IMG/VR virus record: IMGVR_UViG_3300020360_000085
Coordinates: 186,520-250,519 of that record
Length of the DNA stretch: 64,000 bases
Direction: 5' to 3' (one strand)
Source of the DNA: a virus
Lineage: Duplodnaviria > Caudoviricetes
Positions within the stretch are counted from its first letter, which is position 1, and each line of letters begins with the position of its first letter. The position numbers and the translations under genes are program-made. Shown one piece after another: positions 39,073 to 59,111 of the stretch. The notes under the pieces are model-generated. The model was not told the DNA's origin. It ran no database searches and worked only from the letters and a program-made list of their open reading frames with translations.

Positions 39073-39612
39073 CTAGTTATCCTTGTTGTTTTTTAAGTAA
39101 TTTTGTATATTACTTATGTATTTATCACTTACTTCAACTATTTGTCCACTATTATCGTAATAAATATCTCCTTCTTTAATAACAGAAATACTTAAAATAT
39201 ATCTTGTTACTTCAGAATTGTTTTCTACTGTATGAAAATTTTGTGTATTAAATAACACAGCCTGGTTGTTTTCGTAAATATGTTGTAAACTAGGTTTGCT
39301 TTTGTCTCTATTGTATATTATTAATGGACTATTTCCCCAATCTCCTATTAAAGGAAAGTTAATAGCAGAATGTCTTCCGTAGTCTTTATGTATATCTAAT
39401 TTAGTAAAAGGCAACATTTCAGCAAAATAACAACCTTTAGGGGTATAACCTATCTTTATAATTTGATCATAAAGATATTCAAGAATATATTTGTTTGTTG
39501 TTCTACAATATTTGTTGTTGATGCCGGGTTCGGCTATCCACGGAGTTTTTTCTTCTTTTAATATTTTACACAGACGTTTTTGCGACCATTCTATGTCTAT
39601 GTTTTTAAACAT
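39073..39612 (-). CDS. 2OG-Fe(II) oxygenase-like protein
   Basis: IHKD (HxD), FHTV distal His, TRYILS Arg. Confidence 0.7.
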   Translation of the reverse strand: MFKNIDIEWSQKRLCKILKEEKTPWIAEPGINNKYCRTTNKYILEYLYDQIIKIGYTPKGCYFAEMLPFTKLDIHKDYGRHSAINFPLIGDWGNSPLIIYNRDKSKPSLQHIYENNQAVLFNTQNFHTVENNSEVTRYILSISVIKEGDIYYDNSGQIVEVSDKYISNIQNYLKNNKDN

Positions 39613-43249: not shown

Positions 43250-43277
43250 ATTATACACATAATTGACAGGATGTCAA
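43250..43277 (-). promoter_or_regulatory. sigma70-type promoter 6 nt from dnaJ ATG
   Basis: TTGACA-N16-TATAAT. Confidence 0.8.
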
Positions 43278-43709
43278 TTAATCTTTGTCTTTATTGAACT
43301 TTTTTGGTTCGAAATTATTTTTGCTTTCTGCTGAGTCTTCTTTTTTAGGCTCGTAATATTGTTGATATGCTTCTATTATTGATCTAAGTTTTACAATATG
43401 ATTTCTCATTCTAACATTATTTTTTGCAACAAGTTCCCAATCCTCATCACTATAACCAAATACTACAGGATCAATGTTTGCTTCTTTCATTTTAGCAAAT
43501 ACTTCTTCCTGATTGTCGCTTGTTATAACAATTAAGTTTACTTGCTCTAGTGTCTCAACAGGAGGTAATTGTAAGTTAAGAGGTGTACGTTCTATCTCTT
43601 TAGTAAAGATTTCTAATTGCTTTGTACTTGCACAACCACTAATAAGGAATATAGTTAGGATTGGCAATATTAGTACATTCTGCATTAATTTGCGATTTCT
43701 TAGTTGCAT
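43278..43709 (-). CDS. Putative o-spanin (lipoprotein)
   Basis: Lipobox ISGC; overlaps end of i-spanin. Confidence 0.7.
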   Translation of the reverse strand: MQLRNRKLMQNVLILPILTIFLISGCASTKQLEIFTKEIERTPLNLQLPPVETLEQVNLIVITSDNQEEVFAKMKEANIDPVVFGYSDEDWELVAKNNVRMRNHIVKLRSIIEAYQQYYEPKKEDSAESKNNFEPKKFNKDKD

Positions 43710-44124
43710 TTAACTCCTCCTCTGTAAGTGGTGAGCCTTGTGCTATCTCAAAGCACCTTGCTCTTTGTTGTTCTCTTTTACGTTCTATTCTTTCTATACT
43801 TTTAGGTTTATTTAATGCTAGGTTACCTATATCTCTTCTTTCCCCTGAAGCATTTACCTTATTAAATTTTTCTTCTGCAAGTTGTAAATCTGCTGTAAGT
43901 TTTGTATTTGTTTCTGTCAATTGTAAATTAATAGTTTGTATTTGTTCTATATCTTTTAATTGTTGTTCAATAACAGCCTGTTGCTGATCAACAGCATCAT
44001 TTAATTTTGCATTGTTTAATGTAAGGATTTCGTTTTCTGATTTCAGATGTTGAACATACCAAATGCCGCCTCCGGCGCCCATTAGCATGATAAAAAAGAG
44101 TGCTATTTTAATCTGGCTGAACAT
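43639..44124 (-). CDS. Putative i-spanin
   Basis: N-terminal TM, long coiled coil, C-terminal Cys residues. Confidence 0.72.
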   Translation of the reverse strand: MFSQIKIALFFIMLMGAGGGIWYVQHLKSENEILTLNNAKLNDAVDQQQAVIEQQLKDIEQIQTINLQLTETNTKLTADLQLAEEKFNKVNASGERRDIGNLALNKPKSIERIERKREQQRARCFEIAQGSPLTEEELNATKKSQINAECTNIANPNYIPY

Positions 44125-44335
44125 TATTGCCTACAACCTCCAGTAGTTGCGACACAGTCATTACTTCAAATGTTTCCTCTTCTGGGATAGTGATGTTAAG
44201 TTTTTCTTCTACTTGAAGTATAACATCTACTATATCAAATTCGTCACCTCCGAGATCGTCCATTAAGTGTGTATTATCCTCAATAGGCTTATCTCCGAAA
44301 TGGCTTTTTAATATTTCTATTACCTGCTCTCTCAT
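44108..44335 (-). CDS. Acyl carrier protein-like, lacking the phosphopantetheine Ser
   Basis: DDLGGDEFDIVDVILQVEE aligns to ACP EDLGADSLDTVELVMALEE with S to E; ITIPEE...TV motif. Confidence 0.85.
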   Translation of the reverse strand: MREQVIEILKSHFGDKPIEDNTHLMDDLGGDEFDIVDVILQVEEKLNITIPEEETFEVMTVSQLLEVVGNNVQPD

Positions 44336-44339
44336 GTGT

Positions 44340-45122
44340 CTAAACCATTTTTGTTACAAGAATGTCATCGTTGTTTCCAAATACGACAATATATTCTGCT
44401 ATAGGTATTGCTTTCATTTCGCCTAACATAGAGTTAAACTTTCTTAAACTGTAATTCATTTCTTTAACAGCACTTTCTGAAATACCTAAATCAGACATAA
44501 TATCTTTTGCAGGACCAAAATCAACTATTTCTAATGTTGCTATGTCCTTACTACCTCTCATGTGTAGTTTATTATCATTTATGCCTGCCTCTAGTAAACT
44601 TGACCCTTTTAAAAACTCTAATATTTTATTTGAGTTATCTTGTGCTTCTGCTTCTAGTCTTTCTGTTTCTTGCTGTTTGGCTTCTTCTGCCTTTTGAGCC
44701 TTCCAATCATCTGGACTAAGATACGATTCAGGGTCTAATTGCACAAATTTATTTAATTCTTCTGATTGTAAATCAATTAATTTTTCACTTAATAGTGTAC
44801 TAATATTCCAATCTAAATCACCACTTATATTTTCTATTTCTTTTACTAAACTTTTTATGTTATCTAATGAATTTTCGTTTCTGTCCATTTCTACAAATAC
44901 CATAAAGTAATTTTCAGGATTTGGATTAGGCGACACTTCAACATCTCTAATTTCATGAATACTATGATTTAAAAATCTATACAAGTCCTTTCCTGCTTGT
45001 TGCTCATGTATGTGAAAGCCAACAACCATAACATCTTTAGTTTCGCCTGTTTTAGGTTCAAACTCATCTACACTTATTTTTTTAAGCATAGTATTTTTTA
45101 AATCTTGTTGTCTTAGTGCCAT
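44340..45122 (-). CDS. Hypothetical phage protein
   Basis: ORF track. Confidence 0.8.
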   Translation of the reverse strand: MALRQQDLKNTMLKKISVDEFEPKTGETKDVMVVGFHIHEQQAGKDLYRFLNHSIHEIRDVEVSPNPNPENYFMVFVEMDRNENSLDNIKSLVKEIENISGDLDWNISTLLSEKLIDLQSEELNKFVQLDPESYLSPDDWKAQKAEEAKQQETERLEAEAQDNSNKILEFLKGSSLLEAGINDNKLHMRGSKDIATLEIVDFGPAKDIMSDLGISESAVKEMNYSLRKFNSMLGEMKAIPIAEYIVVFGNNDDILVTKMV

Positions 45123-45694
45123 TATAAAATTCCTGTATTAGGTACTGTTTTGTTAATACTAGATGCTTGATTTTGACTATTTAAATCTGCATCTTCCATA
45201 TCTACAAACTGACTATCAACTTCTACAACATCTGGTGTAAACTCGTCTACATAACGTCTAGGCATATCAATACTTACAACCCAAATAGGTTCTGATATAG
45301 TTTTTGGTTTGTATCTTGTAGAACCGTCGTTTCTTTTTTCTAAAGTAACATCGTCAAAAGACTGTACTTTTTTAGGTCTAATAAGTGTATCTTTATTGAA
45401 TTTGACTAAACAATCTCTAGCAATAAGTCTTTTTGCACCATCTGGATCTGGCATGTCATTGTAAGGATACATTAATTTAACATTTACAAAATGCCTTCCT
45501 AATGTGGGTCCTTCTAATATTTCACCTTTCATCCAGTTTTTAAATGCATAAAGATCTAGGCCATCTAAAGTTTTTTCGAACTCTAATAGCATATCTAACA
45601 AAGTATTAGAACTAGATATATTTTTTATGTTATCATTTAATATTTTTGCTGAAATTGTCATCTTGTCTCCTATACATCTATTTATCATATTCAT
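45122..45694 (-). CDS. Hypothetical phage protein (likely start 45663)
   Basis: ORF track; GGAG RBS before MTISAK; GATAAATA upstream. Confidence 0.75.
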   Translation of the reverse strand: MNMINRCIGDKMTISAKILNDNIKNISSSNTLLDMLLEFEKTLDGLDLYAFKNWMKGEILEGPTLGRHFVNVKLMYPYNDMPDPDGAKRLIARDCLVKFNKDTLIRPKKVQSFDDVTLEKRNDGSTRYKPKTISEPIWVVSIDMPRRYVDEFTPDVVEVDSQFVDMEDADLNSQNQASSINKTVPNTGIL

Positions 45695-58715: not shown

Positions 58716-59111
58716 CTATTTATCTGTGTTTACAAGATAGTGAATTGAATTAATTACTGATTGTATTCCTCTTTGTCGTTGAGTGGTCAGCAGACCTGCA
58801 ATAGGTTTGAAGTCGTGAAACTTTATGTCGAGGACATCTTGTGTTTTACAACCATTAAATGTGGTGCATAGTAGTTTGCCGATACCTTTTACGATATATG
58901 CATCACTATCTATAGCAAAGTTCCACTGACCGTTGACTTGTTCGCCTAAAACCCATACACGGCTTTGGCAACCTGATATTTCATTATCAGGTGTTCTTAA
59001 TTCTATAGGGAAGTCTTTTACCGTTTTGCCTTCGTCTAAAAGGTACTCAAAAAGATATTCTTGATCTAAATCAACAAAACTTTCAAGTATAGTGGTTAAG
59101 TCTGACTTCAT
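58716..59111 (-). CDS. sufE: SufE-family sulfur acceptor
   Basis: ISGCQSRVWV with catalytic Cys, DSDAYIVKG, QRQRG. Confidence 0.9.
   Translation of the reverse strand: MKSDLTTILESFVDLDQEYLFEYLLDEGKTVKDFPIELRTPDNEISGCQSRVWVLGEQVNGQWNFAIDSDAYIVKGIGKLLCTTFNGCKTQDVLDIKFHDFKPIAGLLTTQRQRGIQSVINSIHYLVNTDK

Follow-up and report, generated by a model that had tools for sequence, protein, structure and literature searches.

A spanin-linked phage homologue of acyl carrier protein with an acidic residue in place of the phosphopantetheine serine

Acyl carrier protein (ACP) is among the most connected proteins in bacteria. Its canonical carrier function requires the Ser that receives phosphopantetheine, and the conserved acidic residues on its surface are not needed for folding. 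ACP also acts as an adaptor, as in MukBEF and mitochondrial complex I. For several bacterial partners, published work describes how binding relates to the state of the ACP: glycerol-3-phosphate acyltransferase is inhibited more strongly by apo-ACP than by holo-ACP, SpoT does not bind apo-ACP, and the reaction of AcpS on ACP has been summarised (PMC3896788). In Escherichia coli, IscS binds ACP via D35 and D38 and does not bind an S36T variant, and SufS does not bind ACP at all (PMC13343975). The mitochondrial ACP of Plasmodium falciparum has lost its phosphopantetheine site and performs an essential role via protein binding alone (Falekun et al., eLife 2021, PMC8547962). A literature search, incomplete in its coverage, found no paper on phage ACPs that lack the Ser.

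We analyzed a gene that encodes such a protein in a 64,000-nt window, which forms the final part of an IMG/VR virus record (250,519 bp, estimated completeness 66%). Judging from the neighboring genes, the virus, an uncultured ocean phage, is a jumbo phage related to PA5oct, GAP32, and SCTP-2. The features of the locus are as follows.

45122..45694, minus strand: homologue of the PA5oct gp189 virion structural protein, first gene of an apparent unit (PHROG 12928, E 8e-35; tblastn to PA5oct and GAP32)
44340..45122, minus strand: homologue of the PA5oct gp188 virion structural protein (PHROG 13138, E 5e-27; synteny with PA5oct)
44108..44335, minus strand: gene for the Ser-less ACP-fold protein, 75 aa, ATG at 44335-44333 (Pfam PP-binding, AlphaFold2, Foldseek)
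44234..44257, minus strand: DLGGDEFD motif, residues 27-34 (sequence; profile alignment to PDB ACPs)
44240-44242, minus strand: GAA codon of Glu32, at the position of the phosphopantetheine Ser (profile alignment to PDB ACPs)
43639..44124, minus strand: i-spanin, 161 aa, with an N-terminal membrane helix and a coiled coil (PHROG 739 Rz-like spanin, E 5e-11)
43278..43709, minus strand: o-spanin lipoprotein with lipobox LISGC, Cys26 (PHROG 812 Rz-like spanin, E 6e-7)
43250..43277, minus strand: perfect match (12/12) to the sigma-70 consensus TTGACA-16-TATAAT, from a pattern scan only, in which overall site counts were not above those of shuffled sequences

The 75-aa product, laid out as MREQ...DDLGGDEFD...IPEEETF...QPD, is a true ACP-fold homologue. 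It matches the PP-binding profile of Pfam (PF00550) over positions 2-66 of 67 with 32.6 bits (cut-off 20.8, E 1e-7) and PHROG 5934, "acyl carrier protein," and a profile of its family matches solved type II ACPs (lowest E value 9e-13). AlphaFold2, run on 125 sequences, gave a model (pLDDT 88.8) with four helices, which span residues 2-13, 32-46, 52-57, and 61-71. When this model was compared with the PDB using Foldseek, the top 50 matches were all ACPs, in holo as well as apo form, with TM-scores up to 0.88 and rmsd values of 1.0-1.3 Å. The protein, which is predicted to be soluble, equals AcpP in acidity (pI 4.05, net charge about -15), and neither a membrane segment nor an enzyme domain was found in it. 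It misses the threshold of the AcpP equivalog TIGR00517 (39.0 bits vs 70.45), and its best NCBIfam match, NF002148, is likewise below the cut-off (41.3 bits vs 71).

The original prediction had read a Ser-to-Glu replacement within an otherwise retained acidic ACP pattern, and both parts of that reading hold. The codons GAC GAT CTC GGA GGT GAC GAA TTT GAT are present in the ORF, DLGgDEfD of the family profile falls on DLGaDSlD of the solved ACPs with Glu32 occupying their Ser column, and the docking residues of helix II as well as the IPEEE loop are conserved in the clade. Helix II of the model begins at residue 32, that is, at the attachment-site position, and the GAA codon is at least two base changes away from every Ser codon. 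A functional carrier has its phosphopantetheine-accepting Ser in a DSL motif; here, the site is Glu or Asp in every full-length member. Established ACP chemistry thus gives good grounds for regarding canonical 4'-phosphopantetheinylation as excluded, in keeping with the predicted non-acylatable nature of the protein, which would be a non-carrier ACP paralogue.

The acidic residue is a property of a whole family. A word-indexed protein search of marine metagenomes returned 50 homologues, including some fragments, with identities of 58-99%, and the motif D-L-G/N-G/A-D-E-F/L/I-D is found in every full-length one. Glu32 is invariant in 25 aligned homologues with 61-99% identity, and the more distant members retrieved by an exhaustive search of representatives (P0056, P0061, and P0074, with 45-49% and 41% identity) have Glu or Asp at the site. 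The 39 loci correspond to 22 distinct ACP-like genes, all with an intact frame, in which the site is Glu or Asp in 22/22 and Ser in 0/22. The patterns used to scan IMG/VR (IPEEETF and DLGGDEF) favor Glu forms, a bias from which the protein homologue searches are free. Homologues carrying Ser would have spoken against the original prediction; among about 70 members of the family, there are none, and the site is acidic throughout. As no full-length homologue departs from Glu or Asp, a chance match and a sequencing error can both be ruled out. The two residues swap between close relatives (Glu in L035 vs Asp in L036, Glu in L033 vs Asp in L038). The identical protein occurs on 64 contigs from ocean metagenomes, and relatives are found in Tara samples.

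In a maximum-likelihood tree with 65 Ser-bearing ACPs, which was built on 81 columns and whose deep branches are poorly resolved, the family is recovered as one clade with 96/98 support, at the end of a long stem. This suggests a single-clade origin, with one loss of Ser followed by toggling between Glu and Asp. Pairwise dN/dS values are 0.04-0.25 at dS 0.25-0.6, the few values near 1 coming from very distant, saturated pairs, and even at about 40% identity many residues remain unchanged. By these comparisons, the gene is maintained under purifying selection. The loss of the essential Ser and an AcpP equivalog score of 39 vs 70.45 bits could be taken as signs of a decayed, functionless remnant of a captured host acpP gene. 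We give practically no weight to this, as it is contradicted by the low dN/dS, by the frame being intact in 22 distinct genes, and by the residues that stay invariant across the family.

What the clade conserves is informative about function. Among its non-redundant members, D27, L28, D31, D34, D/E37, E43, I48, I50, and P51-E54 are 90-100% conserved, and these are the positions conserved in canonical ACPs, in which they form the docking surface composed of helix II and the loop. That surface acidic residues are kept although folding does not need them is our main, indirect argument for a docking function. From the Glu/Asp fixed at the Ser site together with the retained acidic docking surface, we propose a binding-only role. 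The protein would be a stable four-helix descendant of a type II ACP, an unloadable apo-like mimic that acts purely by protein binding, probably on a host protein recognizing the body of ACP, a reading to which we assign a probability of roughly 55%. In this mechanism, the obligatory Glu/Asp at the acceptor site would block loading with 4'-phosphopantetheine, and the acidic surface of helix II and the loop would bind partner enzymes at their basic patches. The best candidates for a target would be host proteins that recognize the ACP body and not the pantetheine arm, such as AcpS, FAS enzymes, or the acyltransferases that act in glycerol-3-phosphate or lipid A acylation, and binding would block or re-tune envelope lipid synthesis. 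We infer both the identity of the target and the direction of the effect; a host envelope-lipid or FAS enzyme appears more probable as the partner than a phage protein.

By analogy with known ACP interactions, a decoy for ACP-dependent host proteins or defense effectors, as was originally suggested, is plausible, and one such route has precedent because apo-ACP strongly inhibits glycerol-3-phosphate acyltransferase. The published apo-ACP data argue for PlsB-type inhibition, and the S36T data argue against IscS as a target. SpoT, which had been named as a possible partner, fares poorly because it has been reported not to bind apo-ACP. Since IscS and SpoT need the pantetheine arm, a Ser-less mimic would miss arm-dependent partners. 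The further suggestion that Glu mimics a phosphate fits the Glu/Asp-only pattern of this clade but does not generalize, as the Ser site is Ala, Lys, Cys, Asn, or Pro in independent Ser-less lineages. The requirement for Glu/Asp fits either a phosphate-like extra negative charge at the edge of the docking surface or a stabilization of the first turn of helix II.

Two other uses of an acidic, strictly carboxylate-bearing ACP fold were weighed against the mimic. Many phage anti-restriction proteins are small and acidic, and a pI of 4.05 with a net charge of -15 would suit an acidic DNA mimic or anti-defense protein for which the ACP fold is only a scaffold. However, canonical ACPs are equally acidic, what is conserved is the set of ACP docking residues and not a DNA-like array of charges, and the gene is not among the early genes, which makes this very unlikely. 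Alternatively, the protein might still be a carrier by other chemistry, with cargo on the Glu/Asp carboxylate or on another residue. The site is strictly carboxylate in the clade, the phage has large biosynthetic islands, and the amino-group carrier LysW uses a C-terminal Glu. Yet no ATP-grasp or other ligase gene accompanies the ACP-like gene in the loci examined, no other Ser, Thr, or Cys is invariant, and we know of no precedent for carboxylate cargo on an ACP fold, so that we find this idea harder still to credit. As for genes that might serve a carrier, the 250-kb record contains no PPTase (PF01648), no PlsB/PlsC-type acyltransferase (PF01553), and no second PP-binding gene, the ACP-like gene being the only one; with a record only 66% complete, missing partner genes are weak evidence, and the host would have a PPTase of its own.

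The setting of the gene was then compared with that in related phages. On the minus strand, the order is gp189-like, gp188-like, ACP-like, i-spanin, o-spanin, DnaJ-like, and ClpA-like, with PhoH divergent upstream. PA5oct has PhoH, gp189, gp188, DnaJ, and ClpA, its gp188 and DnaJ genes being directly adjacent, and in SCTP-2 the two virion genes are followed by genes for a related i-spanin and a probable o-spanin and then by ClpA, again without the ACP-like gene. No cultured close relative with the gene was found: at the DNA level, the locus matched nothing in the phage collection, and tblastn of the protein gave only seven remote matches, most annotated as acyl carrier protein and two unannotated. 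Two aspects of this setting speak against the mimic reading, namely, that the gene is placed with structural and lysis genes and away from the early genes typical of host takeover, and that the related PA5oct and SCTP-2 manage without it.

Genes in the unit are tightly packed. The ACP-like gene follows the gp188-like gene after a 4-nt gap, its stop overlaps the i-spanin start by 17 nt, and the o-spanin gene overlaps the end of the i-spanin gene. The predicted location directly upstream of the spanins is borne out, as the next two genes match PHROG 739 and PHROG 812 and encode the expected membrane helix and lipobox, respectively. The i-spanin gene is immediately downstream of the ACP-like gene in 39/39 loci, the junction being an overlap of 1-26 nt in most of them and a gap of about 10 nt in some gene calls. 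A programmed frameshift fusing the two proteins was considered and rejected, as the clades do not share one overlap length or relative frame (17 nt, 1 nt, 10-nt gap) and a slippery site is missing. With 143 aa in the listed version (probable start Met9), the o-spanin is long relative to the typical length of about 60 aa, and it has a C-terminal domain that is conserved and common to its relatives. A spanin of the Pelagibacter phage HTVC008M, which has no ACP-like gene, is 52% identical to the i-spanin in the window; this likeness hints at a SAR11-like envelope or at spanin exchange. The HTVC008M relative (117049-117479, L014) corresponds to gp145/gp146, for which the annotation gives two distinct hypothetical ORFs.

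In one subclade (L010-L012, L060, and L061), the gene is part of a recognizable lysis cassette, with the order GH108 endolysin, 43-52-aa CxxC protein, ACP-like protein, i-spanin, and o-spanin. The small protein is acidic, with a CxxC...C arrangement (MRTCQNCGREHEG...), and its gene, located between those for the endolysin and the ACP-like protein, overlaps the start of the latter (L011:5493-5624, L010:901-1059, L060:2613-2771); it is absent from the window. In a related subclade, the spanins are followed by a protein of the MotA/ExbB family and an ExbD/TolR-like membrane protein (L011:6730-8694, L010:2206-4038, L060:3923-5093), and such a TolQR/ExbBD-like pair beside phage lysis genes is unusual. 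The part of the window that was examined yielded no endolysin. In relatives, a PF00959 lysozyme comes after ClpA and one further gene; the corresponding place in the window (39073-39612, minus strand) has a 179-aa ORF with a faint match to Asp/Asn beta-hydroxylase.

Spanin adjacency may reflect a lysis-related role or an inherited gene order. T4 RIII is a small cytoplasmic antiholin, and the ACP-like protein could similarly be a cytoplasmic lysis-timing factor, or couple the lipid state of the envelope to lysis. The invariable i-spanin neighbor in all 39 loci and the endolysin-to-o-spanin order around the gene in one subclade, where the endolysin lies upstream, are in line with this. The protein itself, however, is soluble and acidic, with neither a membrane segment nor an enzyme domain that would make a lysis function evident, and no holin was identified near its gene. 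The adjacency may be simple inherited synteny, related spanins occur without the gene in SCTP-2 and HTVC008M, and the independent Ser-less phage ACPs adjoin MazG, dUTPase, and T4-like early genes instead of lysis genes. We therefore consider a role in lysis timing unlikely.

In another reading, the protein would belong to a phage-encoded protein or assembly, as its adaptor or structural subunit, instead of being a decoy for host enzymes. In favor of this reading, besides the 4-nt gap or start-stop overlap after the gp188-like gene and the overlap with that for the i-spanin, the fold matches include MukBEF, complex I, and MmpL5 structures that contain ACP as a bound subunit, and the clade has fixed residues of its own that are atypical of ACPs (G30, F33, Q41, L46, and T55-F56), of which G30, F33, Q41, and T55-F56 are invariant on the surface. 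There is precedent for a cofactor-free ACP in the Plasmodium Nfs1-Isd11 complex (PMC8547962), and the phage encodes SufE as well as numerous radical SAM enzymes. Against it, the upstream gp188-like virion protein is itself very acidic (net charge -20), the soluble domain of the spanin is periplasmic, PA5oct and SCTP-2 share the virion proteins, DnaJ or ClpA, without having the ACP-like gene, and none of the phage proteins stands out as a partner. On balance, such an adaptor is a real but minority possibility. An iron-sulfur helper role is retained only as a minor variant of this reading, as E. coli IscS depends on Ser36 and on the arm, ACP is not bound by SufS (PMC13343975), and a cysteine desulfurase is missing from the record. 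The SufE gene, at 58740-59078 on the minus strand (87 bits), is thus found in a record without that enzyme. In relatives, SufE lies within a block of radical SAM, UDP-glucose dehydrogenase, SufE, CBU_0592, and SDR genes beside PhoH.

Returning to the binding-only mimic, the unit structure suggests with which proteins it might be produced. The sigma-70 consensus lies just after the o-spanin stop and before the DnaJ-like gene, and this pattern match suggests that the ACP-like gene belongs to a unit of virion and spanin genes separate from DnaJ-ClpA. The protein would probably be made together with the two virion proteins and the spanins. DnaJ-ClpA may form a separate unit driven by the host polymerase, and the start of DnaJ is more likely Met6 (about 43243) than the listed GTG. 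The T4 late promoter motif TATAAATA showed no enrichment and does not occur near the ACP-like/spanin unit. Contigs from RNA libraries of two studies match the ACP-like gene at 99% identity, one of them spanning the junction with the i-spanin gene, and four RNA runs cover parts of the unit. Such contigs, which can contain DNA and carry no information on level, strand, or a single transcript, and whose gaps in coverage have no significance, are a weak sign of transcription.

Loss of the Ser is not confined to the spanin-linked clade. Other Ser-less ACPs are found on separate branches of the tree (an Ala clade, P0105, P0142, P0166, P0169, and P0087), which points to independent losses. In other phage-like contigs that carry independent Ser-less ACPs, the neighbors are MazG, dUTPase, or T4-like early genes, and the link to spanins is therefore not general. 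Separately, a 114-kb T4-like contig (L062, with Imm, SbcCD-like, and Cpn10 genes) has an ACP-like gene with Asp at the Ser site (L062:6001-6791) and a second PP-binding gene two genes downstream of it. More speculatively, the Ser-less ACPs might be a convergent class of phage effectors that, as unloadable mimics, occupy a universal docking site for ACP on a host enzyme of envelope lipid synthesis (PlsB/PlsX- or LpxA/LpxD-type) or on another client; in the present spanin unit, shutdown of membrane or LPS synthesis would be timed with envelope disruption. We consider this improbable as a whole.

The recurrence of Ser loss across phages is the main source of interest. If phages repeatedly turn ACP into an unloadable mimic, this would reveal a conserved and so far unrecognized weak point of the host or a reusable adaptor module, and databases would be mislabeling such genes as auxiliary genes of lipid metabolism. 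The acidic-only site in a family abundant in the ocean is a clean natural experiment. The contributions of the present analysis are the evidence for toggling between Glu and Asp and for a single-clade origin, the dN/dS values, a comparison with the loci of PA5oct and SCTP-2, and the constraints that the literature sets on possible targets.

Among known systems, the closest is AcpP of bacterial type II FAS (PF00550; TIGR00517), especially in its apo form. Fold (TM 0.88, rmsd about 1.2 Å), size, and charge are the same, and the two proteins share the DLGxD-x-LD start of helix II, an acidic helix II, and the IPxEE loop. Unlike AcpP, the phage protein has Glu/Asp for the acceptor Ser in every member, reaches only 39 bits against TIGR00517, and is encoded beside spanins with no FAS genes nearby. 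The P. falciparum mitochondrial ACP resembles it in the loss of the phosphopantetheine site. That protein is, however, eukaryotic and organellar, with a known partner, Isd11-Nfs1, whereas the phage record has neither an LYR-type partner nor a cysteine desulfurase. Finally, the other Ser-less lineages in the tree differ from the spanin-linked clade in their separate branches and in their neighbors, which are MazG, dUTPase, and T4-like genes.
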